NCBI GenBank assembly: GCA_020057555.1
Contig: JAGVFR010000028.1
Location: forward strand, 12,444-76,443
Reading direction: 5' to 3'
DNA length: 64,000 bases
From: a bacterium
GTDB taxonomy: Bacteria > Patescibacteriota > Patescibacteriia > UBA9934 > GWF2-40-263
Part shown: in pieces, positions 1,105 through 54,800 of the stretch
How positions within the stretch are numbered: position 1 is the first letter of the stretch
Layout of the letters: each line of letters begins with the position of its first letter
Position numbers and translations under genes: made by a program
The notes under the pieces: model-generated
Databases searched by the model: none
Told to the model about the DNA's origin: nothing
What the model saw: the letters and a program-made list of their open reading frames with translations, nothing else

Positions 1105-2918
1105 AAAAGACAATCTTGTTTGTTGGTCTGGGGTTGGCAGTCATGATTATTTTTGTGACTGCACTTTTTTTTGTTTGGTCGCTCCCATATAAAAATCATA
1201 TATCACCAAATGTTTGGATCGGCCCGATTGATGTTGGTGGACTTGATCCTGAAACAGCACGCGAAACAATTCAAACACAAATTGATTCACTTGTTGCAAA
1301 TGGAATTCCAGTACAGATCAATGGAATTAGCAAACCACTTGCTCTTGCCACACTTGTTTCATCTGATTTGAATGAGGAAGTAACTTTTGATTTGGATCGT
1401 GCAATGCAGAAAGCTCAAGCCGTTCCGCTTGTTTCATTGAGATTGTGGAATAAAAAAATAATTCCGCTTACAGTTTCTATTGCAAAAGAAAATTTGAAAA
1501 AAAATATTTCTGAATTATTTCCAAACGCAGAAATACCGGTTCAAGACGCGCGATTTTTAATTGTCCCAACTGCAGTGAATAATGAATGGTCAGTTCAAGT
1601 GATTGAAGATAGAGCAGGAAATGAACTGAACTGGAATCCATTCTTTCAAACACTCGAAACTCAACTCATGAATCTTGATGATGCAGAGATCATTCTAAAA
1701 GTTTTTGACAAAGCACCTTTTGTAACAAAACAAATAGCAGAGCAACAAATAGATCAAGTGAACGAGATCCTAAAAAATGACCGGATTCAAATCTCGTATT
1801 CTGACGTATGGAAACAACCGCGAATACTTGAGCTTACAAAGTGGAAACTTTCAAAAATGCTTGTTCCAACTCAAAGTGAAAAAGTTGGAATCGATGAAAC
1901 TCAACTAAATCTTTTCCTTGATGATTTTGCTAAAACATTTGAACGGCCAGCTCAAAACGCAAGATTTGTTTTTGAAAACGGACGTGTTATTGAATTTACT
2001 GAAAGCAAATCAGGAGTAAAAATTGATCGAGTTGTAATGTTCAATCTTCTTTCACAAGCAATTCAAGAACCAATCAATGATCCAATTCAACTTGCTGTTA
2101 TTGTTGAAGAACCACTTGTAAAAACAGGAGATGTGAATGATCTTGGTATTCAAGAAATTCTTGGTTTTGGAACTTCAAGTTATCGTGGCAGTCCAATGAA
2201 TCGCCGTAAGAACATTCAAAATGGAGTTCGGCTATTGAACGGACTTCTTATTGCGCCAGGACAAACTTTCTCTTTATTGGAAGCATTAAAACCATTTGAT
2301 ACAGAGAACGGATATCTCCCAGAGCTAGTAATCAAAGGAGACAAGATCACACCAGAACTCGGAGGAGGACTTTGCCAAATCGGAACAACAACATTTCGTG
2401 CGACAATGAACTCTGGTCTTGCGATTGTTGAACGTCAAAATCATTCACTTGTTGTTTCATATTACAATGATCCTGCAAATGGAAACCCTGGAACTGATGC
2501 AACTATCTATGAACCTGCTCCTGACTTCAAATTTTTGAATGACACTGGTAATTACATTCTTTTCCAAGCAGAAAATTTAACAGACACACAAGAATTACGT
2601 TTCACTTTTTGGGGTACTCCGGACGGACGCAAAGGTTCATACTCTGCGCCAAAAATTTTGCGATGGATTCCAGTTGCAGAACCTCAAAAAATTAAAACAA
2701 CAGATTTAAAACCTGGAGAAGAAAAATGTCAGGAATCGCATATCGGTGCTGATGCGTCGTTTGTTTACAAAATTGAAAATCCAGATGGAACAGTTGTCGA
2801 AATAACATTCACTTCTCACTATCGTCCTTTACCAAAAATATGTTTGATAGGAGTTGAGGAAAAAGAAACTGTAGCGGAAGGCTTTGGCCTTCCAGAAGCT
2901 GAAAGTATAACTCCATAA
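1101..2918 (+). CDS. VanW-family protein with an N-terminal transmembrane anchor
   Basis: 605 aa. It has an N-terminal hydrophobic helix and a VanW-like block GGGLCQIGTTTFRATMNSGLAIVERQNHS...YYNDP. Its start overlaps the hsp20 stop (ATGA). Confidence 0.6.
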   Translation: MKKTILFVGLGLAVMIIFVTALFFVWSLPYKNHISPNVWIGPIDVGGLDPETARETIQTQIDSLVANGIPVQINGISKPLALATLVSSDLNEEVTFDLDRAMQKAQAVPLVSLRLWNKKIIPLTVSIAKENLKKNISELFPNAEIPVQDARFLIVPTAVNNEWSVQVIEDRAGNELNWNPFFQTLETQLMNLDDAEIILKVFDKAPFVTKQIAEQQIDQVNEILKNDRIQISYSDVWKQPRILELTKWKLSKMLVPTQSEKVGIDETQLNLFLDDFAKTFERPAQNARFVFENGRVIEFTESKSGVKIDRVVMFNLLSQAIQEPINDPIQLAVIVEEPLVKTGDVNDLGIQEILGFGTSSYRGSPMNRRKNIQNGVRLLNGLLIAPGQTFSLLEALKPFDTENGYLPELVIKGDKITPELGGGLCQIGTTTFRATMNSGLAIVERQNHSLVVSYYNDPANGNPGTDATIYEPAPDFKFLNDTGNYILFQAENLTDTQELRFTFWGTPDGRKGSYSAPKILRWIPVAEPQKIKTTDLKPGEEKCQESHIGADASFVYKIENPDGTVVEITFTSHYRPLPKICLIGVEEKETVAEGFGLPEAESITP

Positions 2919-3953: not shown

Positions 3954-4949
3954 CTACTTTCCTACTATCTTTTCAACCCTCCAACATCCATTCTCGCCAC
4001 ATAGCAACATCGCATTTTTTATTGTGTACCCAGCAGCCCTTTCATGACCGCCTCCACCCTTTTCTCTTGCAATCGCACTTACATCGCGTGTTGAAGAACG
4101 CATACTAACCTTAACACCTTGTTCTGAAGTTTCTCGCAAAACATAAATTGTTTCTGTGTCTGTCACAAGACTTAAAAAATTCGACAATCCTTCAATCTCT
4201 TCTTCACTGACTTGATTTTCCTTAATGTCTTTTCGAGTAAGACACGTGATTACAGAATCAAAGTCTGGGTGAAAATGAAGACGCTCAAGCGCCAGACCCC
4301 AAACACGCAATGCCGCAACAGAGCGATTCTTAAATAACATACGAATAGCGTCTTGAATTCGTGCACCTGATAAAATAAGTTTGGAAGCAATATCGAGCGC
4401 GCGATTATTTGTCGCGGAGTTTGTAAACGCTGTAGTGTCAAAACAAAGTCCTGCAAACAAACAAGTCGCGGCGTCTTTGCTAATTGGTAAATGATGACTT
4501 TCAAAAAATCCGTAAACAACTTCGGCAGTTGCTGAAGCATCAACAATCACTTGATTGATGTCACCGTATAAAGAATTTGTTTTGTGATGATCGATATTGA
4601 TAATTCTCGGGTTCCCAGGAATAAGTGCGACAAGACGTTTAATAAACTCCGAATCAGAACAGTCAAACGAAACAACAAGATCAATAGTTGGATCAGAAAA
4701 AATCTCGATATTTTGAGTACAACGATTTATAAATGGAAGTGAGCTATAAACTTCAGGAACTGTGGTTGCAACATACACAAACGGTTGCTGTTTCCCATGA
4801 GTTTGCATAAAATCAACCATTGCAAGAGATGATCCTAGGCTGTCGCCATCAACACGTTCATCAGAAATAAACACAGGATTGTGTGCGTGCATCAAAGCCT
4901 CGTGGATTTGTTTATGTTTATAAGATTCCATAAGTGGGATAGTGTACAA
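3954..4949 (-). CDS. nrnA: DHH-family phosphoesterase (NrnA-like oligoribonuclease / pAp phosphatase)
   Basis: Motifs DERVDGDSLGS, IDHHKTN and a C-terminal DHHA1 GGGGHERAAG. Confidence 0.7.
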   Translation of the reverse strand: MYTIPLMESYKHKQIHEALMHAHNPVFISDERVDGDSLGSSLAMVDFMQTHGKQQPFVYVATTVPEVYSSLPFINRCTQNIEIFSDPTIDLVVSFDCSDSEFIKRLVALIPGNPRIINIDHHKTNSLYGDINQVIVDASATAEVVYGFFESHHLPISKDAATCLFAGLCFDTTAFTNSATNNRALDIASKLILSGARIQDAIRMLFKNRSVAALRVWGLALERLHFHPDFDSVITCLTRKDIKENQVSEEEIEGLSNFLSLVTDTETIYVLRETSEQGVKVSMRSSTRDVSAIAREKGGGGHERAAGYTIKNAMLLCGENGCWRVEKIVGK

Positions 4950-4995
4950 AACAAAGCAAAAATGGTCAATCGTGATATACTATCGTCTAGTTTCT

Positions 4996-7233
4996 ATGCA
5001 TCTCGAACGTCTTGAAATTCAAGGATTCAAAACCTTTGCCAAGAAGACAATTTTAACATTTCTTCCTCCAAAAGAAGGCCATTTTCCTGTTACAGCAATT
5101 GTTGGTCCAAATGGTTCAGGAAAATCAAACAGCGCTGACGCGATTCGTTGGGTTTTGGGAGAACAAAGTTTGAAACTTTTGCGCGGTAAACAATCAGACG
5201 ATGTAATTTTTTCTGGCGCAGAGGGAAAAGCTCGTGCTGGTTTTGCAGAGGTCACACTTCAACTCAACAATGAGGACAAATCAATGCCGATTGAATATGA
5301 AAATGTTGTAATCACACGTCGCCTATATCGCGATGGAACTTCAGAATATCTTCTCAACGAAAGTCATGCAAGACTTATTGATATTCAACTTCTTCTTGCG
5401 CAAGCAAATGTCGGTCAACGATCCTATTCAGTTATCGGGCAAGGAATGGTGGATCATATTTTGGTTTCAACACCGGAAGAACGTAAACAATTTTTTGATG
5501 ACGCAACTGGTGTAAAACAATTTCAGATCAAACGTCATGAAGCAATGTTGAAACTCAAGCACACTCTTGAAAATCTTACTGACGCTGAAATGGTTCTTCA
5601 AGAAATTGAACCACGTTTGCGTTCACTAAAGCGCCAAGCATCTCGTCTTGAAAAACGGGAAGAAGTCGAGACCCAACTTCACGCGCTTGAACAAACTTAC
5701 TATGGAAATCTTTGGTGGCAGATTGTGGATGATATGAACGAGCGCAAGCTCACATTTTCTGAAGTCAATAAAAAAATCAAAACAATAGAAAAAGAATTGG
5801 ACGATCTTGAGAAAAAAATGGTCGTTATTGAAAGATCTGAAACAACAGATGAGGGGCTTCGTGAGCTTCAAAAAAAATACCGCGAAATACAACATAAACG
5901 GGAACAGGCTCGTCACACACAATTTGAAACTGAAAAAGAAATTGAACTTGCAAAAATAAAAGTGCAGTCAAATTGGGCACCACTTCCGCTCATAAAAATC
6001 ATCGAAGGAATCGAGGAAATTAAAAAGAAGCTCACTCTCATGTCATCCCGAGCAAAGTCGAGGGATCTCAATAATTTTGATGAAGTTTTCAAAATTGCTG
6101 ATGAGGCTTTTATATTTTCAAACAAACTGGTTTCACAATTGCAAAGACCAAATGCAACTGACATGAAACCAGATCCAAAGCTTGTTGCAAAACTATCACT
6201 TCTAAAACAAGAAGAGGAGAAATTGAATAAAGAGCTTGTTCGAATTGAAAAAGAAATCGATTCACATGCACAAAAAGAAAAAGAAGCACGAACAGAACTT
6301 ATTGAAACACAACGATCTTTGCGCGCAAAACAACAAGATCTACATCTGCTTGAACAGGAGCGAAACCAATCTGAAATTGAACTCGCTCGTTTGGAAGAAC
6401 GACAGCAAGGTTTGATTCGCGAGATGGACGAGTTTATGAAAGAGAGAGCAGTGAATCTAAGAACAAATCTCCCCCCTACCAGAGGGGGGATAAAGGGGGG
6501 AGGGAGCGAGGAAACTTACCCTGAAATTCAGCGACTTCGTTATAAACTCGAATTGATCGGTGGAATCGATCCTGAAGTCATGAAAGAATATACAGAGATT
6601 CAGGAACGCTTTGATTTTCTAAATACGCACGTGACTGATCTTCGACAAGCAATGCGTTCAACAGAAAAAATCATCAAAGAACTGGACGAAAAAATCGAAC
6701 AACAATCCAAAAAATTATTTGGAGAGATTAACAAAAAATTCCAGCACTATTTCAAAATACTTTTTGGCGGAGGATCATGCGCACTTGTGAAAGTCAGCCA
6801 ATCTGTCATCCCAGAAGTGGAATTATCCAATGAGCCTGTCGAAGGGGTAATGAGTCAGATAAACCAGTCCGAAGGTGTTGATATTCAAGCAACTCCGCCT
6901 GGAAAACGTTTGAAGGCATTGAATCTCTTGTCTGGTGGAGAACGTGCACTTACTTCGATCGCGCTTCTTTCCGCAATCATGGATGTAAACCCTTCCCCGT
7001 TTGTTGTTTTGGATGAAGTTGATGCCGCGCTTGATGAAGCAAACACAATTCGATTTGCCGCAATCTTGGATGAGCTTTCACAAAAAAGTCAGTTCATAAT
7101 CATCACACATAATCGCGCGACAATGGAAAAAGCTGATGTACTGTATGGAGTAACAATGGGCGATGACGGAATTTCAAATTTGCTAAGTGTTCATTTGGAA
7201 GATATTGCAAAAAATGGTTCTGCGAGGAGATGA
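4996..7233 (+). CDS. smc: Chromosome segregation protein SMC, short form (~745 aa from the M at 4996; the ORF begins at 4942)
   Basis: N-terminal Walker A LERLEIQGFKTF...IVGPNGSGKSN. C-terminal signature LSGGERALTSIALLSAIMDVNPSPFVVLDEVDAALDE...IIITHN. The middle is coiled-coil-like with many E/K/R residues. Confidence 0.85.
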   Translation: MHLERLEIQGFKTFAKKTILTFLPPKEGHFPVTAIVGPNGSGKSNSADAIRWVLGEQSLKLLRGKQSDDVIFSGAEGKARAGFAEVTLQLNNEDKSMPIEYENVVITRRLYRDGTSEYLLNESHARLIDIQLLLAQANVGQRSYSVIGQGMVDHILVSTPEERKQFFDDATGVKQFQIKRHEAMLKLKHTLENLTDAEMVLQEIEPRLRSLKRQASRLEKREEVETQLHALEQTYYGNLWWQIVDDMNERKLTFSEVNKKIKTIEKELDDLEKKMVVIERSETTDEGLRELQKKYREIQHKREQARHTQFETEKEIELAKIKVQSNWAPLPLIKIIEGIEEIKKKLTLMSSRAKSRDLNNFDEVFKIADEAFIFSNKLVSQLQRPNATDMKPDPKLVAKLSLLKQEEEKLNKELVRIEKEIDSHAQKEKEARTELIETQRSLRAKQQDLHLLEQERNQSEIELARLEERQQGLIREMDEFMKERAVNLRTNLPPTRGGIKGGGSEETYPEIQRLRYKLELIGGIDPEVMKEYTEIQERFDFLNTHVTDLRQAMRSTEKIIKELDEKIEQQSKKLFGEINKKFQHYFKILFGGGSCALVKVSQSVIPEVELSNEPVEGVMSQINQSEGVDIQATPPGKRLKALNLLSGGERALTSIALLSAIMDVNPSPFVVLDEVDAALDEANTIRFAAILDELSQKSQFIIITHNRATMEKADVLYGVTMGDDGISNLLSVHLEDIAKNGSARR

Positions 7234-7257
7234 ATAATTACAACTCTTCAACTGCAG

Positions 7258-7307
7258 TAAATTATTGCCTGAACCTGTCGAAGGCCATAATTTACTTCTG
7301 TTCAGGT
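7258..7307 (+). repeat. Family-1 intergenic hairpin element (AATTATTGCCTGARCCTGTCGAAGGCC...YTCAGG)
   Basis: aattattgcctgaacctgtcgaaggccataatttacttctgttcagg. The stem CCTGAAC/GTTCAGG covaries with CCTGAGC/GCTCAGG in the copy at 44598. Confidence 0.6.
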
Positions 7308-7938
7308 ATAAACAAAACAACCGTTCTCGATGAGACGGTTGTTTGGTTTCCTGAATATTCAAACTGTGGTTTGACTATTCGGGGTACGGGGCGAGGACAG
7401 ATAATCCTCGCCCAAGAGCTTTGTGGTCGTTCACCTCCACGACCTTTAGGAGAGTTCTTTGTTTCGCAGATTTCTCTGCGCGGACGAAACTCACAACGCC
7501 CGTGACTTCTTTGGAACGCCTTCACTCCTTAAGTAGATAACAAAAGGCGTTTCCTTTCAGGCTTCAGAAGTCTTTTGCCTGCCATGCTTTGGTTGCGAGC
7601 CTGACGACGTCCTGGCCAGAAGCCAGGGAGCTGTTTCGAATGGGATCGCTACTTAGTAGGTTTGCACCTACTTCTGACTCCCCATCAAAACAACCACGCA
7701 TAGTACGCCGACCATTCTGTCTTGTATCCACGCACGGGCGAATGATTTGCCAACGGCCCCGTACGCTTCCCCTATCTCATCAGCCTGTTCCTTTCTCGAC
7801 GCATTTCGTTGTTTCCAACATTTTCCGTTGCTGGATCCAACAACCATGCTCCCCCAGCACATACTGGAGAAGCCCCCAGACACCAGATAGCACCAAAGCT
7901 TCAGAGAACCACCAGATGCGACTTCATCGCACCTTCGT
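7305..7938 (-). ncRNA. Candidate large structured ncRNA (unclassified), about 630 nt. It is GC-rich and has no ORF.
   Basis: A minus-strand promoter has TTGACA at 7974-7969, a 17-nt spacer and TAATCT at 7951-7946. An intrinsic terminator hairpin AACAACCGU...ACGGUUGUU at 7343-7316 is followed by a U-tract. Between them is ~50% GC sequence in a ~39% GC genome with many perfect local hairpins. Only short ORFs rich in Trp/Cys/Arg occur, on both strands, so they look spurious. I found no match to conserved cores of RNase P RNA, tmRNA or SRP RNA. Confidence 0.45.
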
Positions 7939-7994
7939 GGGAAGTAGATTATCATATTTTGACGTTTTTGTCAAGAGCCTACCATGAATACTTG

Positions 7995-8013
7995 GCTCAA
8001 TTTAGCTAAAAAC
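7995..8013 (+). repeat. 18-nt motif GCTCAAWTTAGCTAAAAA, copy 1, upstream of the rpsP promoter. Copy 2 is at 41969 upstream of rpoB.
   Basis: ggctcaatttagctaaaaa here versus tgctcaaattagctaaaaa at 41969, a 17/18 match. A third TTAGCTAAAAA lies at 42079. Confidence 0.5.
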
Positions 8014-8026
8014 AAAAAAGGGTTGT

Positions 8027-8056
8027 CACTTGACAGAAGAAATCAAATCACATACA
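8027..8056 (+). promoter_or_regulatory. Putative sigma70 promoter for rpsP (TTGACA, 17-nt spacer, TACACT)
   Basis: cttgacagaagaaatcaaatcacatacact. An 8-bp hairpin CCACGGCT/AGCCGTGG lies just before the start codon. Confidence 0.35.
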
Positions 8057-8120
8057 CTCTCCTCACATTCACTTTTCAAATACTATACAACCACGGCTAA
8101 AGCCGTGGGCTACAAACACT

Positions 8121-9654: not shown

Positions 9655-9707
9655 TCTGTTTGCCTGTCGACCGATCCCCCGAAGTTTCAGCGAAGGGGGA
9701 CAGACGG
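9655..9707 (+). repeat. Family-1 intergenic hairpin element, long variant
   Basis: ttgcctgtcgaccgatcccccgaagtttcagcgaagggggacagacgg. It shares TTGCCTG, TCGA and CCGAAGYTTCAGCG with the copy at 14661. Confidence 0.5.
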
Positions 9708-9790: not shown

Positions 9791-9820
9791 TTGACAGGTT
9801 TCTGTCTCTTTTATAAAATG
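9791..9820 (+). promoter_or_regulatory. Putative rRNA promoter (TTGACA, 17-nt spacer, TAAAAT), about 225 nt upstream of the mature 16S 5' end
   Basis: cttgacaggtttctgtctcttttataaaatg. Confidence 0.45.
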
Positions 9821-11502
9821 CCACCGCTACTAGTTCAAGCACCCAAATCATCCAAACACTCTCCCGAGGGAGGCCTCGTGAGAGTTTTCATTACGCTTGA
9901 AGTTAGACGTCCATTACAATTGAATAACATCACATAATATGAACTTCTCTGTTGTGTGATTGTAATGTTTGTTCACGCAAAGAAGCCTTCTCAGTGGCCC
10001 TTTGCAATGACAGAATCCTTTGCTCCTTCTGGAGCATTGGATCTTTACTGAGAGTTTGATCCTGGCTCAGGACGAACGCTGGCGGCAGGTCTAAGGCATG
10101 CAAGTCGAACGGTTTGTTGTTGCCCGCAAGGGTGATGGCGAATAGTGGCAAACGGGAGCGTAACACATTGGTAACCTACCCCGAGCTCGTGAATAATTCA
10201 CCGAAAGGTGGACTAATACACGATATTGATGAGGGGACGCAAGTCATTCTCATTGAAAGCTTCGGCGGCACGGGAGGGGCCTATGCATTATCAGCTAGTT
10301 GGTGAGGTAATGGCTCACCAAGGCTATGACGATTACCGGGCGCGAGAGCGTGGCCCGGCTCACTGGGACTGAGACACGGCCCAGACACCTACGGGTGGCT
10401 GCAGTCAAGAATATTCCTCAATGCACGAAAGTGTGAAGGAGCTATGCCGCGTGCCAGACGAAGGCCTTCGGGTCGTAAATGGCTTTTATAAGGGACGAAC
10501 AAATGACGGTACCTTATGAATAAGGGGCTGCTAATCACGTGCCAGCAGCAGCGGTAATACGTGAGCCCCAAGCGTTGTCCGGATTTATTGGGCGTAAAGA
10601 GTCTGTAGGCTGTTCGATGTGTCATTCGTCAAATCTTCAGGCTCAACCTGGAGGCTGCGAGTGAGACTATCGGACTCGAGAACGGGAGAGGTGCATGGAA
10701 TTGCCGGTGTAGCGGTAAAATGCGTTAATATCGGCAAGAACACCAAAGGCGAAGGCAGTGCACTGGAACGTTTCTGACGCTGAGAGACGAAAGCGTGGGT
10801 AGCGAATGGGATTAGATACCCCAGTAGTCCACGCCGTAAACTATGAATGCTAGGTTTCGGGAGTATCGACCCTCTCGGAGCCGTTCAACCAAGTTAACAC
10901 GTTAAGCATTCCGCCTGGGAAGTACGATCGCAAGATTAAAACTCAAAGGAATAGACGGGGACCCGCACAAGCGGTGGAGCGTGCGGTTTAATTCGATGGT
11001 AAGCGAGGAACCTTACCTGGGCTTGAAAGACAGCTGCAATCCTGATGAAAGTCGGGACGCCTTCGAGGGTGCTGTCTAGGTGCTGCATGGTTGTCGTCAG
11101 CTCGTGGTGTGAACTGTTCCCTTAAGTGGGGTAACGAGCGCAACCCTTATCCCGCGTTATAAGTGTCACGGGAGACTGCCCTCGCAAGAGGGAGGAAGGT
11201 GAGGATGACGTCAAATCAGCATGGCCCTTATGTCCAGGGCGACACGCGCGCTACAATGGCCGGTACAATGGGCAGCCAAATCGTAAGATGGAGCTAATCC
11301 CACAAAGCCGGTCCCAGTTCAGATTGAGGTCTGCAACTCGACCTCATGAAGCCGGAATCGCTAGTAACGGCCGATCAGCCACGCGGCCGTGAATACGTTC
11401 TCGGGTCTTGTACTCACCGCCCGTCACGTCAAGAGAGTTGGCAACACCCGAACGTCGCCGTAGGGCGACGGAAGGTGGGGCTGATGATAAGGACGAAGTC
11501 GT

Positions 11503-12325
11503 AGAGTGAATCTCATTTGTTGCGACTCTCGACAGTAATGTCGATGTTAAAATCTGACTATATCGGTGAAGCCCTATTCCCTCTCTCGGGAAGGGTAATA
11601 CCGAGGGAAGCTTTTATACGATTATGGCAAACAGAAAAGAGTATCACCTAATGCGTCAGTCGGTGCATCTCACCGATTATCAACGTTCGATGCTTATCGG
11701 AACACTTCTTGGAGATGGAAGTCTCGTTGAGACAACATCAAAAAAGAACCTCCGATTAAAAATCGAGTATTGCGATGCTCAACGTGATTATGTCTTCTGG
11801 AAATATGAATGCCTTAAATCGTTTGTCTTAACTCCTCCGAAGTTCCAAATCAGGAACCGCTCGTGGATGTTCAAGACCATTAGTCATCCAGAATTCACGA
11901 TGCTCGGCGATCTCTTCTATGAGAAACGTCGAAAAATCGTACCAGTGGAAATTATGATCCTTCTCAAGGATCCGCTTTCCCTGGCAGTGTGGTTCATGGA
12001 CGATGGATCGAAAAATAGAAATGATGGGTTGATTCTAAATACGCAATGTTTCACTAATAATGAAACAAAGCGATTGAAGAACTGCCTTTCAACTAATTTT
12101 GGCATCGACCATGTTTCACTCCAAAAAGATAAATCTGGGTGGCGCTTGTATGTTCAATCGGCATCGTCCGGTCATATGACACAAGTCATGAAGCCTTACG
12201 TCCTGCCGTGTCTAACATACAAATTGATAAGCCCTGTAGAGACTACACGTCGGCCCCGTCGCCTAATTTCGTAGGCAGGCGGGTGAAGATATAGTCCATG
12301 CCCGGAGTAATCCGTGGAATCACAG
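11503..12325 (+). mobile_element. Group I-like intron at 16S position ~1506 carrying a LAGLIDADG homing endonuclease
   Basis: The 5' exon ends in U and the intron ends in G. A candidate internal guide sequence GCGAC at ~11522 pairs with the exon end GUCGU. An 823-nt insertion splits otherwise conserved 16S sequence, and the ORF fills most of it. Confidence 0.7.
11624..12274 (+). CDS. LAGLIDADG homing endonuclease (two motifs) within the 16S intron
   Basis: LIGTLLGDGSL and LAVWFMDDGSK. Confidence 0.85.
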   Translation: MANRKEYHLMRQSVHLTDYQRSMLIGTLLGDGSLVETTSKKNLRLKIEYCDAQRDYVFWKYECLKSFVLTPPKFQIRNRSWMFKTISHPEFTMLGDLFYEKRRKIVPVEIMILLKDPLSLAVWFMDDGSKNRNDGLILNTQCFTNNETKRLKNCLSTNFGIDHVSLQKDKSGWRLYVQSASSGHMTQVMKPYVLPCLTYKLISPVETTRRPRRLIS

Positions 12326-12526
12326 AACAAGGCACCCGTAGCGGAAGCTGTGGGTGGATCACCTCCTTTTTAGGGATATTTTCTTCTGAAGCTTTATGCG
12401 GATGAGGAACATGATCCCAGGTCGAGATCAATCTATCAGGTTGGTCGGACTCGGCCCTCGGGCCGAGAAAATATTCGGACAAACATTGCAATCATAGAGT
12501 AGAGAAGGATTGAAATTCATCCTGAA

Positions 12527-12566
12527 TTAAAAATACACCCTGAGCTAGTCGAAGGGTGTATTTGTT
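12527..12566. terminator. Bidirectional intrinsic terminator after 16S and after tRNA-Phe. No 23S follows.
   Basis: aaaaatacaccctgagctagtcgaagggtgtatttgtttt. The stem is ACACCCT/AGGGTGT with T runs on both strands. Confidence 0.6.
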
Positions 12567-12574
12567 TTATTATG

Positions 12575-12649
<75 letters not shown>

Positions 12650-12655
12650 AAATAT

Positions 12656-12684
12656 ATTGCCTGAGCCTGTCGAAGGCTGCAGGG
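12656..12684 (+). repeat. Family-1 intergenic element, short form
   Basis: attgcctgagcctgtcgaaggctgcaggg. Confidence 0.5.
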
Positions 12685-12706
12685 CTATTTCGATCTAAAA
12701 TTTTAG

Positions 12707-13150
12707 CTACCTCGGCGTTGTGTTCTCTTCTGAATCCTCAACGTGTACTGAACGCAGTAACACAAGCGCGATAAGACCAAGTACAGTCGCAACTGTTGCA
12801 AGCGCAAACATTCCCATTCCAACCGTAATCCCGATTCCAGCAACAAGCCACAAACTTGCAGCTGTTGTCAGACCTTGAACATGGCCGCGTGATTGAATGA
12901 TCATTCCAGCTCCGATAAATCCAATTCCTGGCAACACGCTCGAGATGATTCTTGAAATATCTGTCGCTGATGTCGCGCCTTCTTGTCGAACAATTTCTAA
13001 AGAGACGATCGTTATAAGCGCTGTTCCAAGCCCAACCAACATATTCGTCCTCATACCTGACGGTTTGTGGCGATACTCGCGTTCATATCCAATCGCGCCA
13101 GCTAGAATAATAGCGACAATAAGACGAACGATCATGTCTGAAAATGGCAT
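12707..13150 (-). CDS. MgtC/SapB family membrane protein
   Basis: MPFSDMIVRLIVAIILAGAIGYEREYRHKPSGMRTNMLVGLG... Confidence 0.75.
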   Translation of the reverse strand: MPFSDMIVRLIVAIILAGAIGYEREYRHKPSGMRTNMLVGLGTALITIVSLEIVRQEGATSATDISRIISSVLPGIGFIGAGMIIQSRGHVQGLTTAASLWLVAGIGITVGMGMFALATVATVLGLIALVLLRSVHVEDSEENTTPR

Positions 13151-14552: not shown

Positions 14553-14629
14553 TGGTGGGCGTGGATGGACTCGAACCATCGACCTCAACATTATCAGTGT
14601 TGCGCTCTAACCACCTGAGCTACACGCCC
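14553..14629 (-). tRNA. tRNA-Ile (GAT), CCA encoded
   Basis: GGGCGTGTAGCTCAGGTGGTTAGAGCGCAACACTGATAATGTTGAGGTCGATGGTTCGAGTCCATCCACGCCCACCA. Confidence 0.9.
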
Positions 14630-14660
14630 GAATGAGTGAAATGGCCAAAATTTGACGAAT

Positions 14661-14721
14661 TACTGCCTTCGACCCGCCTGCGCTGAAGCTTCGGACGGGC
14701 AGGCTGGCTCAGGCAATAACG
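14661..14721 (-). repeat. Family-1 intergenic element, long variant with an internal hairpin
   Basis: The reverse complement is cgttattgcctgagccagcctgcccgtccgaagcttcagcgcaggcgggtcgaaggcagta. Confidence 0.5.
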
Positions 14722-41810: not shown

Positions 41811-42337
41811 AAAGAAAACCTTTGATTTAGAGGTCTTCCTTATTTATTTTGTTTGTGGGTTGAGAAAGCCATCAAAGAGTGGGTGAGTTCTTTAGATGGA
41901 AACTACCTTCTGTGCACCTGGTTGACCGTTCAGCCACAAACGAGGTGAAATATTTTGTCAAACTTTGCTCAAATTAGCTAAAAATGACGAAATGCAACGA
42001 GATAGTAACATGCGCTGGTACGAACGTCAAGTGCCATATGTGAACTTTCAGTGGATTGTCAAGAGTTAGGATTTTTTAGCTAAAAAAAGCAAAAAGACCG
42101 TTGTCAGGTCCTTTGTAAACTTGGGTTTATCCACAGCCTCCTTTTCACAAGGCTGCGAAGTGAAGCCACGAAAGAGTTACCGAGTCAAAACATCTGAGCA
42201 TGAGGAGAGAGATTTTGCCGCATTCCGTTAGGAACACAGCGATGCTCGCGGTTTTCATTCGGAAATATCGTACCCCACATCGCAGCCTTGCAAAAACAAG
42301 GCGTAATAACACTTAATATTATAGTGTTAATTTGGAA

Positions 42338-42385
42338 AAAATCAAGTAAAAGGACCAAAAGGACGAAGAAGACCAAAATGACCAA
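42338..42385 (+). repeat. Five tandem imperfect purine-rich 9-mers in the long rpoB leader region
   Basis: aaaaggacc aaaaggacg aagaagacc aaaatgacc aagaaggaa. Confidence 0.5.
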
Positions 42386-42496
42386 GAAGGAAACCCCATT
42401 TTTACTCAATTTTCTATCTACAATCTTCGATATCACGAAATATGATTGTGGAGAGAAGAAAAAGTGGGTCCAAGTGAATGGGTGGACCCTGCCCAG

Positions 42497-43639: not shown

Positions 43640-43884
43640 TTTTCTCCCCCTTCATCCTCGATTATCTCATCAAGGAATTTGTTACGCCAATGTTTACTCT
43701 TCTACAATAAAACCGCTCAGGGAGGTCGAGAATGTCACATAGTGATCTAGGCATGGCCGTAGATGTGTGTAACGTGACGAATCAACACGGTGCAAAAAAA
43801 GTTTTCACCTTGTCTGCATCGGAGATCGCGCCAGGGTGGGTTCTCGTCCTCCATAAGCGGTTTTAAAAGTTCACATTGAAAACA

Positions 43885-44448: not shown

Positions 44449-44597
44449 TGTCTCCTCCTTGGCTTTCACGCCTGATTGTAGATTTCTGCCCACACTTGCG
44501 GACAGTGTTCAATCCATATAAATGAACTGAACACTATCAGCATATTTATTGTGTCATTCTGAGGGAGTAATTCATTCGTGATCCTTCACGGAATTTA

Positions 44598-44665
44598 CCC
44601 TGAGCGGAGGCAATCATGGCCTTCGACAGGCTCAGGCAATAATTGCCGAAGTCGAAGGGTTCAGG
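44598..44665 (-). repeat. Family-1 intergenic element plus an adjacent partial GTCGAAGG hairpin
   Basis: The reverse complement is aattattgcctgagcctgtcgaaggccatgattgcctccgctcaggg. The stem is CCTGAGC/GCTCAGG. Confidence 0.6.
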
Positions 44666-44702
44666 ATGACAAGAAGGAAGAAAGTTGCTCTGGACGACAA
44701 CT

Positions 44703-44781
44703 GTTTGAACGGTTGTGCTGTGTCGAAGGGAACAGCGGCGATAGTCCGATGGCCCGGAGACATAGCACAACCGTTCAAACT
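44703..44781 (+). ncRNA. Family-2 structured RNA motif, copy A. A conserved 42-nt core lies inside a long hairpin with a covarying closing stem.
   Basis: gtttgaacggttgtgctgtGTCGAAGGGAACAGCGGCGATAGTCCGATGGCCCGGAGACATagcacaaccgttcaaac. Confidence 0.5.
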
Positions 44782-44859: not shown

Positions 44860-47184
44860 ATGTCACGCAGACGCAAACGTACGTATAAACGAGCCGAAGA
44901 AGAGAGCAAGGGCTCCATCCTGGGAATTGAGCTCAATCAAGAAACAAAACGCGGCATTATTGTCGTGTTGCTTTTTGCAGTTGCGGCGCTAATGTTCCTG
45001 TCGTTTTTCCAAATTGCAGGAAGTCTTGGAACAATTATAAATTCTGGTCTTTCTCAATTTTTTGGCTTTGACCGCTTTCTTGTCCCACTTGTTTTAATTA
45101 TGATAGGAGCAACACTTGCATATCCGGAGCGTGGAACTTTTTCAACTTGGAATTTACTTGGGTTGTTTTTCTTTTTCTTGTCATTCAATTCAATACTAAA
45201 TCTTTTACTTGTTAATAAGCCTGAACCGTTCACACAAAATCTTTCTTCTGCTGGTGGATATCTTGGTCAATTCTTGGGTTTACTTTTGCCAACTTTCGTT
45301 GGTTATTGGGGAGCGATCGTAATTGCGATTGCTCTACTTTTTATTTCAATAATGCTTGCCTTTAACACGTCGCTTCATAAGCTTGGCCCAGCGCAAACTC
45401 ATTTGTCAGGTTGGATTGGGAGAATGTTTAGTAGAAAAATCGGAGAGGTTGCAGAAGTTGAAGAGGCAGAATATGACGAAAAGGTTGGAGAAGTTGAAGA
45501 CGAAGAAGAAGTCGAAGAAGAAAATCACGAATTTCATGCAAAACCTGTTGAAGTAACAAAACAACTTGAAACTCTCCTTGCTACAAAACAACGACGTCAA
45601 ATTAACATTCCACTTACTTTGCTTGATCGTTCAACATCAAAAGCTCAATCAGGTGACATTGAACGCAACAAAGAAATTATTGAAAAGACATTTCATGAAT
45701 TTGGAATCGACGTCGAAATGGGAAACATTTCTGTTGGCCCAACAGTCACGCAATATACACTTCGTCCAGCGCAAGGAATCAAGCTCGCACGAATTGTGAG
45801 TTTGCAAAATGACCTTGCGCTTGCTCTTGCCGCGCACCCAATCCGTATGGAAGCTCCAATTCCTGGAAAATCCCTGGTTGGTATTGAAGTTCCAAATACA
45901 AAAGTTGCGACAGTTACGCTACGAGATGTTATTGAATCAAAACCATATCGTGAATGGAAAGGGGCTCTTGCAATTCCACTTGGAAAAGACGTGTCTGGCG
46001 GAACTTGCATGATCTCACTTGATAAAATGCCTCATCTCCTTGTTGCCGGAGCAACTGGTTCTGGAAAAAGTGTATGTCTAAATGCAATTATTTTATCACT
46101 CATTTATCAATACGGTCCTGATGATTTGAAATTCATCTTGGTTGATCCAAAACGTGTTGAACTAACAGCGTATGCTGGAATTCCACACTTACTTGTTCCT
46201 CCAATTGTTGGAGTTGATGACACAGTAAACGCGCTTAAATGGACTGTGAGAGAAATGGAACGACGTTTAGACATGCTATCAAAACATGGAGCGCGAAACA
46301 TTGATGATTACAATGCTAAGGTCGAAGAACGCATGCCAAAAATTGTAATTTTGATTGATGAACTCGCAGATCTTATGTCAGCAAGTGGGCGAGAAGTTGA
46401 AGCAACGATTGTCCGTATTGCTCAAATGGCGCGCGCTGTTGGAATTCATCTTGTACTTGCAACTCAACGTCCGAGTGTTGATGTTATAACGGGGCTTATT
46501 AAGGCCAACATCCCTGGACGTATTGCCTTCGCAGTTGCCTCTCAAACCGATTCACGCACAATTCTCGATCAATCTGGTGCAGAAAAACTTCTTGGTCGTG
46601 GTGACATGCTTTTCACATGCGCAGAAATATCAAAACCAAAACGAATTCAGGGCGCGTTTGTTTCTTCTGATGAAGTTGAGCGAATTGTTTCGTTCCTTCG
46701 TAAAAAAGGAGAACCTGATTACAATTTGGCAATCACTGAAATCACAAAAGCCGGAACAGTTTTTGATAATCCGGAAGATAGCGATCCAATGCTTGAGGAA
46801 TGTGTCCGAGTTGTTCTACAGTCCGGGAAAGCTTCGACGTCTTTACTGCAACGACGACTTCGCATTGGATATTCACGGGCCGCTAGAATAATGGATCTAC
46901 TTGAACAAGGCGGAGTTATTGGTCCACCTGATGGTTCAAGACCGCGCGAAGTGTTGATTGATGAATGGCCACCTGGAGGAAATATAAAAGAGGGAATGCC
47001 AATTGCGCAAGATGATTATGAAGAGGCTTGGGGAAAAGAAACTAGAGAAGCTGAAGAGGCAGAAGAAGTTGTAGCGGTAGGCTTTGGCATTCCAGAAGCT
47101 GAAGAAGCTGCAGAAGATCAAGAAGTGGAAAAAGATGAGAAGGAAAACTGGGAAGATAAGATCGATGACGAATGGATAAAATAA
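44860..47184 (+). CDS. ftsK: DNA translocase FtsK/SpoIIIE
   Basis: 774 aa. N-terminal TM helices, Walker A GATGSGKS, a C-terminal gamma-like domain and an acidic tail. Confidence 0.9.
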   Translation: MSRRRKRTYKRAEEESKGSILGIELNQETKRGIIVVLLFAVAALMFLSFFQIAGSLGTIINSGLSQFFGFDRFLVPLVLIMIGATLAYPERGTFSTWNLLGLFFFFLSFNSILNLLLVNKPEPFTQNLSSAGGYLGQFLGLLLPTFVGYWGAIVIAIALLFISIMLAFNTSLHKLGPAQTHLSGWIGRMFSRKIGEVAEVEEAEYDEKVGEVEDEEEVEEENHEFHAKPVEVTKQLETLLATKQRRQINIPLTLLDRSTSKAQSGDIERNKEIIEKTFHEFGIDVEMGNISVGPTVTQYTLRPAQGIKLARIVSLQNDLALALAAHPIRMEAPIPGKSLVGIEVPNTKVATVTLRDVIESKPYREWKGALAIPLGKDVSGGTCMISLDKMPHLLVAGATGSGKSVCLNAIILSLIYQYGPDDLKFILVDPKRVELTAYAGIPHLLVPPIVGVDDTVNALKWTVREMERRLDMLSKHGARNIDDYNAKVEERMPKIVILIDELADLMSASGREVEATIVRIAQMARAVGIHLVLATQRPSVDVITGLIKANIPGRIAFAVASQTDSRTILDQSGAEKLLGRGDMLFTCAEISKPKRIQGAFVSSDEVERIVSFLRKKGEPDYNLAITEITKAGTVFDNPEDSDPMLEECVRVVLQSGKASTSLLQRRLRIGYSRAARIMDLLEQGGVIGPPDGSRPREVLIDEWPPGGNIKEGMPIAQDDYEEAWGKETREAEEAEEVVAVGFGIPEAEEAAEDQEVEKDEKENWEDKIDDEWIK

Positions 47185-54725: not shown

Positions 54726-54800
54726 GGAGCAGTTTGCATCATGTCGCAGGGAACAACGGCGAGGAGTCCGTTGGCCCGGAGACATGGTGCAAACTGCTCC
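54726..54800 (+). ncRNA. Family-2 structured RNA motif, copy B
   Basis: ggagcagtttgcatcatGTCGCAGGGAACAACGGCGAGGAGTCCGTTGGCCCGGAGACATggtgcaaactgctcc. Confidence 0.5.

Follow-up and report, generated by a model that had tools for sequence, protein, structure and literature searches.

The window, by which we mean the whole 64,000-nt stretch of DNA analysed, carries a dispersed palindromic repeat whose flagged copy lies as a nested composite in the 3' spacer of smc (7244-7309, +), between the smc stop codon (7231-7233) and a conserved terminator (about 7317-7350). Repeat pairs, folds and alignment resolve this composite into an inner hairpin at 7257-7295, made up of GTAAATTATtGCC, the core TGAACCTGTCGAA (7270-7282) and GGCcATAATTTAC, with an RNA fold z of -2.6 and a DNA fold z of -4.0, enclosed by a degenerate, inverted outer unit (CTCTTCAAC...GTTCAGG). 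The fold reverses the hairpin as drawn in the first-pass annotation, in that the conserved motif forms the loop or core and the flanks form the stem, and the alignment identifies CCTGAAC/GTTCAGG, previously taken as the closing stem, as a remnant of the outer unit. The covariation reported for that stem between the copies at 7258 and 44598 is a single case, seen in two copies with 23 differences over 76 aligned positions, and carries little weight; both the proposed stem and its covariation arise because the units are nested and inverted. An intrinsic terminator was rejected for the flagged copy, whose stem is AT-rich and lacks a T-run and which is followed by the separate conserved terminator. 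Three relatives carry three different elements in the smc 3' spacer, with another element of the same superfamily in L236 and a RAYT gene with GTAG-REPs in L237/L238.

Two further copies, overlooked at first pass, lie in frame inside smc itself, with cores at 6831-6843 and 6049-6062. The unit at 6822-6851 (+; ..LSNEPVEGVM..) has the stem ATTATCC/GGGTAAT, and in L236 its counterpart gains 24 nt (a CCCGTC/GACGGG hairpin) in frame between TGAGCCTG and TCGAAGG. The unit at 6041-6069 (+; ..MSSRAKSRDL..) is TGTC-tagged and reads TGTC-ATCCC-GAGC-AAA-GTCGA-GGGAT-CTC; in L236, an 87%-identical relative with an SMC 91% identical, 72 nt replace its AAA, a net gain of 69 nt or 23 codons with the frame kept. 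This insert is 85% identical to window positions 44580-44674, is absent from L237/L238 and shows no visible target duplication. Despite the gains of 69 and 24 nt, the L236 frame stays open across 795 codons. Insertions that lack stop codons and have lengths divisible by three are thus retained within smc.

The repeat is real at the level of the whole window, where seven intact generalised cores were found against 0.92 expected, besides two split or nested copies, and where a flanking stem with 4 or more pairs accompanies five of the seven matches (0.07 expected). With up to 3 mismatches, a 27-mer matches at 7260-7286 (+), 12652-12678 (+) and 44618-44644 (-), with 0 matches expected by chance, and repeat pairs link 7260-7292 with 44612-44644 (33 nt, 94%) and 12655-12677 with 44619-44641 (23 nt, 100%). 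The sequence GTCGAAGG occurs nine times (1.6 expected), and the exact core is present in five copies in the 64-kb window compared with two in 890 kb of related loci. Among the copies listed at first pass, those at 7258, 12656, 14661 and 44598 hold, while that at 9655 proved a weak partial relative (fold z -1.4 on one strand and -0.95 on the other).

The third overlooked core (12541-12553) belongs to a unit earlier assigned to a separate family 2, at 12530-12570 (+) between the 3' ends of the 16S and tRNA-Phe genes, which runs AAATACACCC, core TGAGCTAGTCGAA, GGGTGTATTT and then a T-run (fold z -3.3 and -6.2). A and T runs on either side make its hairpin terminator-like in both directions, its place in L240 is taken by an ordinary terminator hairpin, and in L317 its loop holds 30 extra nt (a GC hairpin). 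It is the one window copy that combines a hairpin with a T-run, and its loop exceeds the 8 nt up to which the terminator scan accepts loops. The long variant suspected at 14661 was confirmed in the tRNA-Ile leader (14660-14719, -; fold z -2.3), 3' of a promoter-like site at 14764-14736, and its core is split by a 33-nt hairpin in the order TTATTGCC-TGAGCC-[33-nt GC hairpin with CCGAAGCTTCAGCG]-TCGAA-GGCAGTAA. The relatives L318 and L319, reached via the pilin gene, have lost synteny here and offer no empty site for the tRNA-Ile copy. The weak relative (9655-9705, +) lies in the 5' leader of a KH-domain gene between divergent promoters and consists of TTTGCCTGTCGA plus the hairpin CCCCC-GAAGTTTCAGCGAA-GGGGG. 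It shares with the long variant the internal block CCGAAGYTTCAGCGMAGG, exact at 9679-9696 (+) and 14677-14694 (-) as first noted, and is not conserved at the matching spacer of L240. The divergent spacer upstream of ftsK holds a three-level nest (44552-44671, -), delimited by repeat pairs and folds (z -3.8/-3.3), in which TGTCATCCTGAA...GTGAAGGATC and its inverted partner form the first level, an inverted unit CCCTTCGAC...GCTCAGGG at 44597-44659 the second, and a hairpin at 44610-44648 with arms GGCAATTATTGCC and GGCCATGATTGCC around the core TGAGCCTGTCGAA the third.

Structure and spread of the repeat unit

The conserved part of the repeat is the asymmetric core YGAGC-N2-4-GYCGAR, here in the form TGAGCCTGTCGAA, which is common to families 1 and 2 and bears out the earlier hint that the two are related. 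The unit is a hairpin of about 20 nt in which the core is flanked by a variable stem of 3-4 bp, longer in this genome. On the core strand the helix can extend through a Y-R pair, tandem G.A/A.G and a G-C pair, an extension with no equivalent on the complementary strand. Core positions 1 and 13 covary, with T-A at 196 (121 expected), C-G at 65 (40 expected) and C.A at 25 (75 expected), and the first stem pairs of 127 unselected flanks comprise 97 Watson-Crick (57 expected), 23 G.T and 2 A.C. The excess of G.T over A.C, which comes from this one stem position, indicates that the hairpin is selected on the core strand.

Units are found singly, as inverted doublets, or nested in one another's loops, and among relatives the loops gain or lose extra hairpins (indels of 24 and 30 nt), although these loop insertions could instead be deletions in the other lineage. 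An inverted partner lies within 150 nt downstream in 52 of 116 units (median gap 26) compared with 15 upstream; the composites of the window lie at 7244-7309 and 44597-44659. Several likenesses were considered and rejected. By-eye sequence comparison gave no fit to the K-turn, the hammerhead core, group II intron domain V, integron attC, Xer/dif or the Tn3 inverted repeat, and the commonest variant, TTCGACAAGCTCA, no longer forms the T-arm-like reverse-strand hairpin (CC-UUCGACA-GG). Mimicry of the 16S 5' end was discarded as well; CCGTTCGTCCTGAGCC, a GC-rich variant, is exactly complementary to 16S GGCTCAGGACGAACG, but the arm varies freely (TTATTGCC in the window) and the match is probably due to chance.

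The motif extends far beyond this genome. Genome stretches with the exact 21-mer number more than 114 and represent at least 10 phyla, and the 17-mer occurs in more than 120 IMG/VR contigs, with carriers in Chloroflexota, Patescibacteria, Proteobacteria, Bacteroidota, KSB1, Calditrichia, Actinomycetota, Verrucomicrobiota, Planctomycetota and Cyanobacteria. Among cultured phages only phiCbK-like Caulobacter phages carry it, and it is also present on plasmids or chromids of Sphingobium, Moraxella and Comamonas; in these phages, plasmids and chromids no annotation ever lies under the motif.

A small nuclease gene and an insertion beside tRNA-Phe

Inside the unit clusters, GIY-YIG ORFs (PF01541) were identified at 6 of 114 motif-selected loci, compared with none in 1.13 Mb and one in 0.89 Mb of control sequence. 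The encoded protein is a small, stand-alone domain of about 95 aa with at least 7,900 homologues. Peptides encoded by the core (..STSS.., PEPVEG, LRQAQ) appear in the C-terminal tails of 81 of the 120 best nuclease homologues and of 2 of 240 control proteins. All four homologues checked at the DNA level have units or a variant core within 300 nt, three of them having been picked for a missing peptide, the fourth being that of the cultured Cyclobacterium amurskyense (L348, CP012040.1, 4,876,884-4,880,270). Units thus cluster around the nuclease gene in both directions of sampling, a tight link for which the measurements come mostly from Bacteroidota, Chloroflexota, Sphingomonas and Kuenenia. 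Distant viral GIY-YIG homologues (38-45% identity) have no units, and the link is therefore specific to one subfamily. In two organisms the nuclease gene is inserted between hsdM and hsdS. The 64-kb window itself contains no GIY-YIG gene, and its copies are orphans. Literature searches, which covered the core on both strands, its encoded peptides and any pairing of GIY-YIG with repeats, turned up no relevant paper. Taken together, the gene neighbourhoods and translated tails suggest that the small GIY-YIG nuclease probably drives the repeat.

Evidence of movement comes from the tRNA-Phe/MgtC junction (12638-12716, +), where a 55-nt family-1 element (12650-12704, core 12662-12674) has recently been inserted and is bordered on both sides by a 12-nt target duplication, AGCTACCTCGGC, at 12638-12649 and 12705-12716. 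The duplicated 12 nt are the first 12 nt of tRNA-Phe, whose 5' sequence is GCCGAGGTAGCTCAG, and hold the MgtC stop codon. In L317 (MgtC 99% identical in amino acids and 89.5% in nucleotides) the same junction is an empty site with a single GCCGAGGTAGCT and an intact tRNA-Phe; the combination of clean empty site and duplication is known from this one insertion. Known GIY-YIG homing enzymes make 2-nt overhangs and are not known to leave a 12-nt duplication, which counts against the nuclease. The duplication may reflect selection, as only insertions that rebuild both the MgtC stop codon and the tRNA would survive. Relatives show two more insertions at tRNA 5' ends, and in L316 the MgtC/tRNA-Phe site that carries the element in the window is taken instead by a GIY-YIG gene of 78 aa, with a duplication of 9 nt. 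This nuclease, the sole one seen in the window's clade, is more divergent (51% identity) and has no canonical flanking units.

These observations give the suspected tie to tRNA genes a partial basis. The association with stable RNAs is present locally, with copies on both sides of tRNA-Phe and in the tRNA-Ile leader, and does not hold in general, the 21-mer lying no nearer than about 480 nt to a tRNA at any of 25 low-GC loci.

Competing explanations

The repeat, whose copies appear and vanish between close relatives, is mobile DNA and is neither an operator nor a promoter nor an sRNA. We put at roughly 70% the probability that the motif is an orphan copy of a short, non-autonomous mobile palindromic repeat propagated by the small GIY-YIG nuclease, and we infer a REP/RAYT-like system with a different class of enzyme. 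The stand-alone nuclease would recognise and propagate the repeats by cutting the unit hairpin or cruciform, or a unit-like target such as ..CGAGGTAGCTCAG in the 5' part of tRNA genes, and the break would be repaired by copying in a unit, a doublet or the nuclease gene. The window copies would be orphans left by such cut-and-copy events, and some may have been co-opted passively, as the terminator hairpin loop at 12530-12570 or as extra residues in the SMC linker.

More tentatively, and with the odds somewhat against it, the pair could be a pan-bacterial replicator, consisting of a hairpin of about 20 nt with an invariant tandem-G.A core and a stand-alone Slx1/YhbQ-like GIY-YIG nuclease of about 95 aa. 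This enzyme would cut the extruded hairpin or look-alikes at the start of the tRNA acceptor and D-arm, with repair copying units, doublets or the gene. The whole would amount to another system of the REP/RAYT type, one that arose independently with a different class of enzyme and passes horizontally between phyla. If so, its activity would give rise to nested palindromes, provide the seeds of terminator loops and lengthen essential proteins such as SMC by peptide segments.

The strongest rival, itself unlikely, holds that units are target sites rather than cargo. Here the nuclease gene could be a passenger, a free-standing homing gene entering existing arrays, with units spreading or persisting by other means (another enzyme, slippage or template switching). 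Nuclease genes do lie inside arrays and read through into them, tandem and partial unit duplications (GTCGAAGGGTCGAAGG and 21-nt tandem arrays) resemble slippage, and homing enzymes recognise uninterrupted targets, not their own DNA (PMC1564403). However, an identical 17-21-mer across phyla is left unexplained without a conserved reader, for which the conserved nuclease is the sole candidate found, and the majority of units are orphans far from any nuclease gene, as are REPs.

A functional cis RNA motif, whether a terminator, an mRNA 3' stabiliser or a selected protein-binding tandem-G.A hairpin, appears improbable. The folds are stable, the core strand tolerates G.T, most copies lie in transcribed spacers (smc 3' UTR, tRNA leaders) and the 12530-12570 hairpin with its T-run stands where L240 has an ordinary terminator. 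Against this, copies occur in frame inside smc, orthologous sites in close relatives are empty or otherwise occupied, the flagged copy has its own conserved terminator after it, and orientation to flanking genes is about random (13 same and 8 opposite on the 5' side), which also leaves a strand-specific sRNA unsupported. Rfam returned no family, either at gathering thresholds or at permissive E-values (E <= 1); the nearest likeness, RF02901 (AaHKsRNA41, an Aggregatibacter sRNA) on a related locus, scored 37.6 bits against a gathering score of 97.

Movement by known transposases, as REPs/REPINs of a RAYT (IS200-like Y1 transposase) or as MITEs of a DDE transposase, is very improbable, even though the earlier proposal of a REP/MITE-like element was sound in that short palindromes are dispersed in many copies. 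Inverted doublets and one-strand hairpin selection fit REPIN/Y1, and the clade has RAYT genes. In L150, a RAYT is surrounded by a REP mosaic that includes the units, and the true CGTC REP CGTCATTCCGGCATGGATTGCCGGAATCCA beside them looks different. Y1 transposition leaves no duplication; the 12-nt duplication would fit a staggered-cut DDE event, and the relative L318 has a true MITE with a 7-bp duplication, whose inverted-repeat ends are found around a unit doublet in L151, L167 and L171. Yet the window has neither an HUH motif nor a transposase domain in its ORFs, RAYT-like HUH motifs near units number 1 in 770 kb of unit-bearing loci and are not enriched, and the RAYTs in L237/L238 and L150 have GTAG REPs of their own on their flanks. 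No consistent GTAG/CGTC tag was found, as [CT]GTC adjoins the stem in 37 of 127 unselected copies, which composition alone predicts; a TGTC start is limited to the 6041 unit and the ends of 44552-44671, and the family-1 copies (7257, 12650, 44648) are untagged. Nor was an autonomous element bounded by the core found. Gene-sized elements between core halves showed no excess over control beyond about 60 nt, inspected paired units 350-3500 nt apart enclose ordinary genes save for the GIY-YIG loci and the L150 RAYT, and the 55-nt insert has simply AT-rich ends, with no terminal inverted repeats shared with an autonomous IS.

An operator or promoter element common to tRNA and rRNA loci, as first suggested, is barely credible. 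In its favour, three window copies adjoin tRNA genes and a weak one lies upstream of 16S. Against it, none of the 12 promoter-like sites overlaps an element, the sigma-70-like ones being at 14764-14736 (-) for tRNA-Ile and, in the 16S/KH spacer, at 9791-9819 (+) and 9754-9726 (-). Elements are absent or replaced in close relatives, including the empty L317 site beside an intact tRNA-Phe, none of 25 copies in other low-GC loci is within 400 nt of a tRNA, and copies also lie inside smc and upstream of ftsK.

To our knowledge, only the GTAG-REP/RAYT pair among small palindromic repeats has a known enzyme, and mobile repeats propagated by the GIY-YIG nuclease would offer a concrete, testable enzyme-repeat pair, with an identical core from Patescibacteria to Chloroflexota, Bacteroidota and Proteobacteria around a very abundant nuclease. 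If true, this would give a role to many proteins annotated as GIY-YIG nuclease family protein or putative endonuclease and would account for numerous falsely called small ORFs as well as for odd C-terminal tails (PEPVEG, STSSAT, LRQAQ). The smc copies show a route by which essential genes of tiny CPR genomes acquire linker residues, and the window copies should be annotated as mobile repeats, not as rRNA or tRNA regulatory sites.

Comparison with known systems

With free-standing GIY-YIG homing genes (phage T4 seg, I-TevI relatives) the system shares a small GIY-YIG gene acting as mobile DNA, and Slx1-type GIY-YIG enzymes cut branched or hairpin DNA. The unit-linked nuclease differs from homing, Slx1 and YhbQ-type enzymes in having no DNA-binding domain after the catalytic domain, where its tails are translated repeats. 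Its gene also lies amid short hairpin-repeat arrays, which we have not found described for homing genes. Compared by description, Rickettsia palindromic elements (RPEs) are likewise selfish palindromes in frame in essential protein genes and kept as peptide, while the units appear to differ from them in sequence and size. RPEs are confined to Rickettsia, and we know of no enzyme associated with them.

The system also resembles REP/REPIN-RAYT systems (REPtrons), in the short imperfect palindromes, the many dispersed and mostly orphan copies, the frequent inverted doublets and a small nuclease-type enzyme gene embedded among the repeats. In contrast to those systems, the gene encodes a GIY-YIG nuclease rather than an HUH/Y1 transposase, the units have no GTAG or CGTC tag and conserve a 13-nt core around which the stems vary, and one unit insertion carries a 12-nt target duplication. 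REP families are, as far as we know, lineage-specific, whereas the 17-21-mer is identical across many phyla. GTAG/CGTC REPs include occasional intragenic in-frame copies and nest in other palindromes, and the units resemble them in both respects (PMC3733652). The CGTC-tagged REP superfamily (Di Nocera et al. 2013), which includes Neisseria dRS3 and Rickettsia RPE-4/6, is described as having no dedicated transposase, head-to-head dimers and intragenic copies, all of which it has in common with the units, and conserved stems of 8-9 bp with loops of 4-5 nt (PMC3733652). The unit at 6041-6069 and the ends of 44552-44671 resemble it in their TGTC, AT-first stem and 3-nt tail; the units as a whole are set apart from it by a stem that varies, a 13-nt core that is conserved and family-1 copies that are untagged.

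Copies of the element and the architecture of its unit

The window (GC 41.6%) is housekeeping DNA from a Patescibacteria-type genome, and its MgtC and pilin proteins have their closest named homologues in Candidatus Uhrbacteria MAGs. The smc gene (4942-7233, +) and its conserved 3' terminator (about 7317-7350) are followed by S16, trmD, a KH-domain gene and the 16S gene, then by tRNA-Phe (12575-12649, -), MgtC (12707-13150, -), an MFS gene, tRNA-Ile (14553-14629, -) and a type IV pilus operon; no 23S gene follows the 16S in the window. The repeat reported by the first-pass annotation is real: a 27-mer of the motif gave three matches with at most 3 mismatches where none was expected, a repeat finder independently paired 7260-7292 with 44612-44644 (33 nt, 94%) and 12655-12677 with 44619-44641 (23 nt, 100%), and there are 9 occurrences of GTCGAAGG where 1.6 would be expected. 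In the long variant at 14660-14719 (-), both motif halves are retained on either side of a 33-nt inner hairpin, and the 9655 copy has in common with this variant the block CCGAAGYTTCAGCGMAGG (9679-9696) but is otherwise merely a weak relative. A generalised core, [CT]GA[GA]C-N1-4-G[CT]CGA[AG], matches the window 7 times (0.92 expected), in 5 cases with 4 or more pairs in the flanking stem (0.07 expected); the hits include two previously overlooked cores lying in frame within smc (6049-6062 and 6831-6843).

The hairpin anatomy had been drawn wrongly, since folding pairs the flanks and leaves the conserved motif as the apical part, as in the flagged hairpin at 7257-7295 (GTAAATTATtGCC TGAACCTGTCGAA GGCcATAATTTAC; RNA z -2.6, DNA z -4.0). 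The hairpin at 12530-12570 (ACACCC TGAGCTAGTCGAA GGGTGT) carries the identical core on a different stem, which bears out the suspected kinship of families 1 and 2. Segments 7244-7309 and 44597-44659, the latter in the spacer from which a GC-rich ORF and ftsK diverge, align over ~75 nt with an insert in the smc of a relative (L236), and all three are nested, with a reverse outer unit (CCCTTCGAC...GCTCAGGG) around a forward inner hairpin. The supposed closing stem CCTGARC/GYTCAGG is the core of the inner unit opposite that of the outer inverted unit, the two being complementary by construction, and its A/T versus G/C "covariation" amounts to one position between two copies with 23 differences in 76 aligned positions. 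The observation is thus real but mis-drawn.

Across 543 cores from all fetched DNA, counted with the search pattern itself left out, core positions 1 and 13 covary, with T-A (196 vs 121 expected) and C-G (65 vs 40) enriched and T.G (29 vs 64) and C.A (25 vs 75) depleted, which argues that the helix can continue from the stem into the core. Judging from the sequences, it can run from the stem through a Y-R pair and a putative tandem G.A/A.G (5'-YGAR-3' on both strands) to a G-C pair closing a 3-6-nt loop; the complementary strand would present pyrimidine-pyrimidine mismatches at the tandem-G.A positions. Just outside CC..GG, 97 of 127 unselected flanks form a Watson-Crick pair (57 expected), 23 a G.T and 2 an A.C, and past the second pair there is no complementarity; the general unit is therefore ~20 nt, and its hairpin is under selection on the core strand, in the form of single-stranded nucleic acid. 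Stems in the window's genome are longer than this general form.

Insertions among close relatives and the regulatory readings

Comparison with close relatives reveals that the element is mobile at several sites. In L317 (MgtC 99% identical in amino acids, 89.5% in nucleotides), the MgtC stop codon falls within the first bases of tRNA-Phe (..ACAACGCCGAGGTAGCTCAGTGG...), and the window has at this junction GCCGAGGTAGCT, a 55-nt element and a second GCCGAGGTAGCT, an insertion that duplicated 12 nt of its target and left both genes intact. The family-2 loop adjoining tRNA-Phe is 30 nt longer in L317; such loop size differences represent either insertions or deletions. The first smc site reads TCATCCCGAG-CAAA-GTCGAGGGAT in the window and likewise in L237 and L238 (there CGAA), and in L236 (87% nucleotide identity) AAA is replaced by 72 nt, 85% identical to window 44580-44674, with the frame open. 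At the second site, L236 carries an additional 24-nt GC hairpin within the 6831 unit, in frame between TGAGCCTG and TCGAAGG. In the SMC alignment, the segment from GGGSCALVKV to GVDIQATPPGK is a variable linker that resembles translated units in several relatives (SLGKLEMT, SLGMT). The spacer between the smc stop and the conserved terminator has three occupants across relatives: the window has a family-1 composite, L236 another element from that superfamily, and L237/L238 a gene for RAYT, the transposase of REP repeats, with GTAG-REPs. At the position of the family-2 hairpin, the relative L240 has an ordinary terminator hairpin. The exact core is scarce in related loci (2 copies in 890 kb), and hence its abundance here reflects local expansion in the window's lineage. 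The analysis as a whole establishes a repeat family with a core-strand-asymmetric hairpin, insertion/absence polymorphism, one 12-nt duplication and in-frame persistence in smc.

Other differences and features were recorded in the same regions. L236 has a ~140-nt element with 19-bp inverted-repeat ends CCGGTAGKACAACAATGAT (1190-1331) just upstream of the VanW-like gene, absent from the window at 1099, and further extra segments at window positions ~694 and ~3115. An 823-nt insertion (11504-12326), whose ORF (11624-12274) is a LAGLIDADG_2 endonuclease, interrupts the 16S gene (10044-12372) close to the 3' end, following ..AAGTCGTA; model positions 1440-1533 (the last ~95, with the GGATCACCTCCTTT end) resume within 12270-12369, and L240 has uninterrupted GTCGTAACAAGG at this site. 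Between the smc terminator and S16, 7350-8100 is devoid of a convincing ORF, ~82% conserved with L237/L238 and without an Rfam match at E <= 10; it is probably the "candidate large ncRNA" noted earlier.

Among the roles first suggested, only a REP/MITE-like element holds. A general association with stable RNAs fails, as 0 of 25 copies in other low-GC loci lie within 400 nt of a tRNA. The local tRNA link may have its cause in tRNA 5' ends being recurrent insertion points: the window's tRNA-Phe 5' end is one, and L316 has a GIY-YIG gene between CCGAGGTAG repeats at the same junction and a 167-nt palindromic insert between CTACACGCCC repeats at the tRNA-Ile 5' end. These tRNAs begin with a sequence (..CGAGGTAGCTCAG) that, by eye, appears similar to the reverse core TTCGAC-TA-GCTCAG. 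A promoter role is contradicted by promoter-like sites located elsewhere than the elements, the tRNA-Ile copy sitting in the leader downstream of such a site. A strand-specific role as a small RNA is at odds with an about random orientation relative to neighbouring ORFs; the elements have no Rfam match, and the sole sequence-specific resemblance, sub-threshold, is to RF02901, an Aggregatibacter sRNA whose consensus has an inverted GCUGAGCUUGCCGAAGC pair.

Distribution and association with a small GIY-YIG nuclease

The family extends far beyond this lineage. Among the matches listed, CCTGAGCCTGTCGAAGG occurs in >120 IMG/VR contigs and the 21-mer TTGCCTGARCCTGTCGAAGGC in >114 stretches of species-representative genomes, against our own estimate of ~0.5 by chance over 596 Gb. 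The genomes listed for the 21-mer include Chloroflexota (many), Uhrbacteria, Parcubacteria, Saccharibacteria, Sphingomonas, Gammaproteobacteria, Achromatium, Bacteroidales, Cyclobacterium, Flavobacteriaceae, KSB1, Calditrichia, Actinomycetota, Limisphaerales, Planctomycetaceae, Pseudanabaena and Chitinispirillales. Among cultured organisms, chromids of Sphingobium commonly carry the motif (4-20 listed places per replicon), which is also present in Moraxella and Comamonas, never with an annotated feature beneath. Units of the TTGCC type usually form the left half of an inverted doublet (52/116, median gap 26). The commonest GC-rich form, CCGTTCGTCCTGAGCC.. (e.g. L026 3984-4016, and many loci), exactly complements GGCTCAGGACGAACG, the universal segment at the 16S 5' end where the 27F primer binds; this match is probably coincidence, because the unit arm varies freely.

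In a motif scan of all fetched DNA, 6 of the 114 loci recovered through the 21-mer contained small GIY-YIG ORFs, namely L145 (Roseilinea), L155 (Cyclobacterium), L157 (Sphingomonas), L181 (Bacteroidales), L207 (Flavobacteriaceae) and L229 (Chloroflexota); control DNA yielded none in a set of 1.13 Mb and, in a set of 0.89 Mb, a single one from another subfamily. All six belong to PF01541 and are embedded within a unit cluster, several reading through into units (tails ..PLPEPVEG..), and five have in common a highly conserved ~95-aa domain with 57-77% identity across phyla. The L207 nuclease retrieved at least 7,921 proteins of 93-189 aa at E <= 1e-15, and core-encoded peptides occur in the tails of 81 of the best 120 of these, against 2 of 240 unrelated control proteins. 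DNA was fetched for four homologues, three picked for lacking tail peptides and one from cultured Cyclobacterium amurskyense, and all four are flanked by units or a variant core: 6 units upstream and 3 downstream of the gene in L342, 4 downstream in L345, the variant core CTGAGGCTCTCGAAGGC on both sides in L347 (Kuenenia), and at least 18 units in an array of period ~94 nt in L348. Distant viral homologues (38-45% identity) have no flanking units. The 64-kb window contains no GIY-YIG ORF; L316, of its clade, has a 78-aa GIY-YIG gene exactly where the window carries a unit element. The units and one GIY-YIG subfamily are in tight two-way association. In L345 (1501-1800) and L347 (1501-1842), two unrelated organisms, the small nuclease gene and units lie between hsdM and hsdS of a type I restriction-modification system. 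In a literature search of incomplete coverage, the core, its encoded peptides and the link between small GIY-YIG proteins and repeats were found in no paper; a prior description is possible.

Relation to known repeat systems

Several other repeats were noted in the window and in related or unit-bearing loci. A classical GTAG-type REP, GTAGCGG[AT]AGGCTTTGGC[CA]TTCC, lies at window 2871-2893 and 47071-47093, in the C-terminal coding ends of a VanW-like ORF (1101-2918) and ftsK (44860-47184); in L237 (4440-4520) and L238 (2330-2400), this REP flanks the RAYT gene (..FMPNHVHLLIE..) adjoining smc. A second hairpin family (44700-44781 and 54726-54800) has a conserved ~45-nt core (TGTCGMAGGGAACARCGGCGA..AGTCCG.TGGCCCGGAGACAT) inside differing but fully complementary 16-17-bp outer stems, and in Rfam gave nothing beyond miRNA-like hairpin matches; just upstream of its second copy, 54569-54723 matches two loci of an Uhrbacteria MAG (L126, L201) at 84-89%. 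Further inverted repeats are of 27 nt (42136-42162/42276-42302) in the 686-nt spacer upstream of rpoB (41811-42496) and of 25 nt (43708-43732/43841-43865) in the spacer 43700-43870; 42.5-44.5 kb is a GC-rich island (50-57% vs 41%). L318 (10560-10700) carries a ~125-nt MITE, bounded by the inverted repeats GACCCCTACAAAAGTCG/CGACTTTTGCAGAGGTC and showing a 7-bp duplication (CAACACC), that is absent from L319 (1590-1610), and similar ends enclose a unit doublet in the Uhrbacteria-type loci L151, L167 and L171. In Achromatium sp. WMS2 (L150 640-2200), a RAYT gene sits in a dense repeat mosaic of three or more kinds, with GTAG REPs, a CGTC REP (CGTCATTCCGGCATGGATTGCCGGAATCCA) and TGAGCC..TCGAA units.

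The GTAG and CGTC REP superfamilies form head-to-head dimers, have in-frame intragenic copies and nest in other palindromes, and the CGTC class has no transposase (PMC3733652, Di Nocera et al. 2013). The present family displays the same general biology, and some of its units are TGTC-tagged; unlike in those REPs, no tag is consistently present, and the family is defined by conservation of its core and not of its stem. In the mechanism we propose, the GIY-YIG nuclease would recognise or cut the unit, or unit-like DNA, and repair would then spread units, doublets and the nuclease gene, much in the way RAYT is believed to spread REPs; the units would be either cargo or targets of the nuclease. 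Overall, the element is a member of a repeat family spanning many phyla, with a GIY-YIG nuclease as its apparent partner, and owing to this apparent pairing, we regard repeat and nuclease together as a novel variation on the REP/RAYT type of system.
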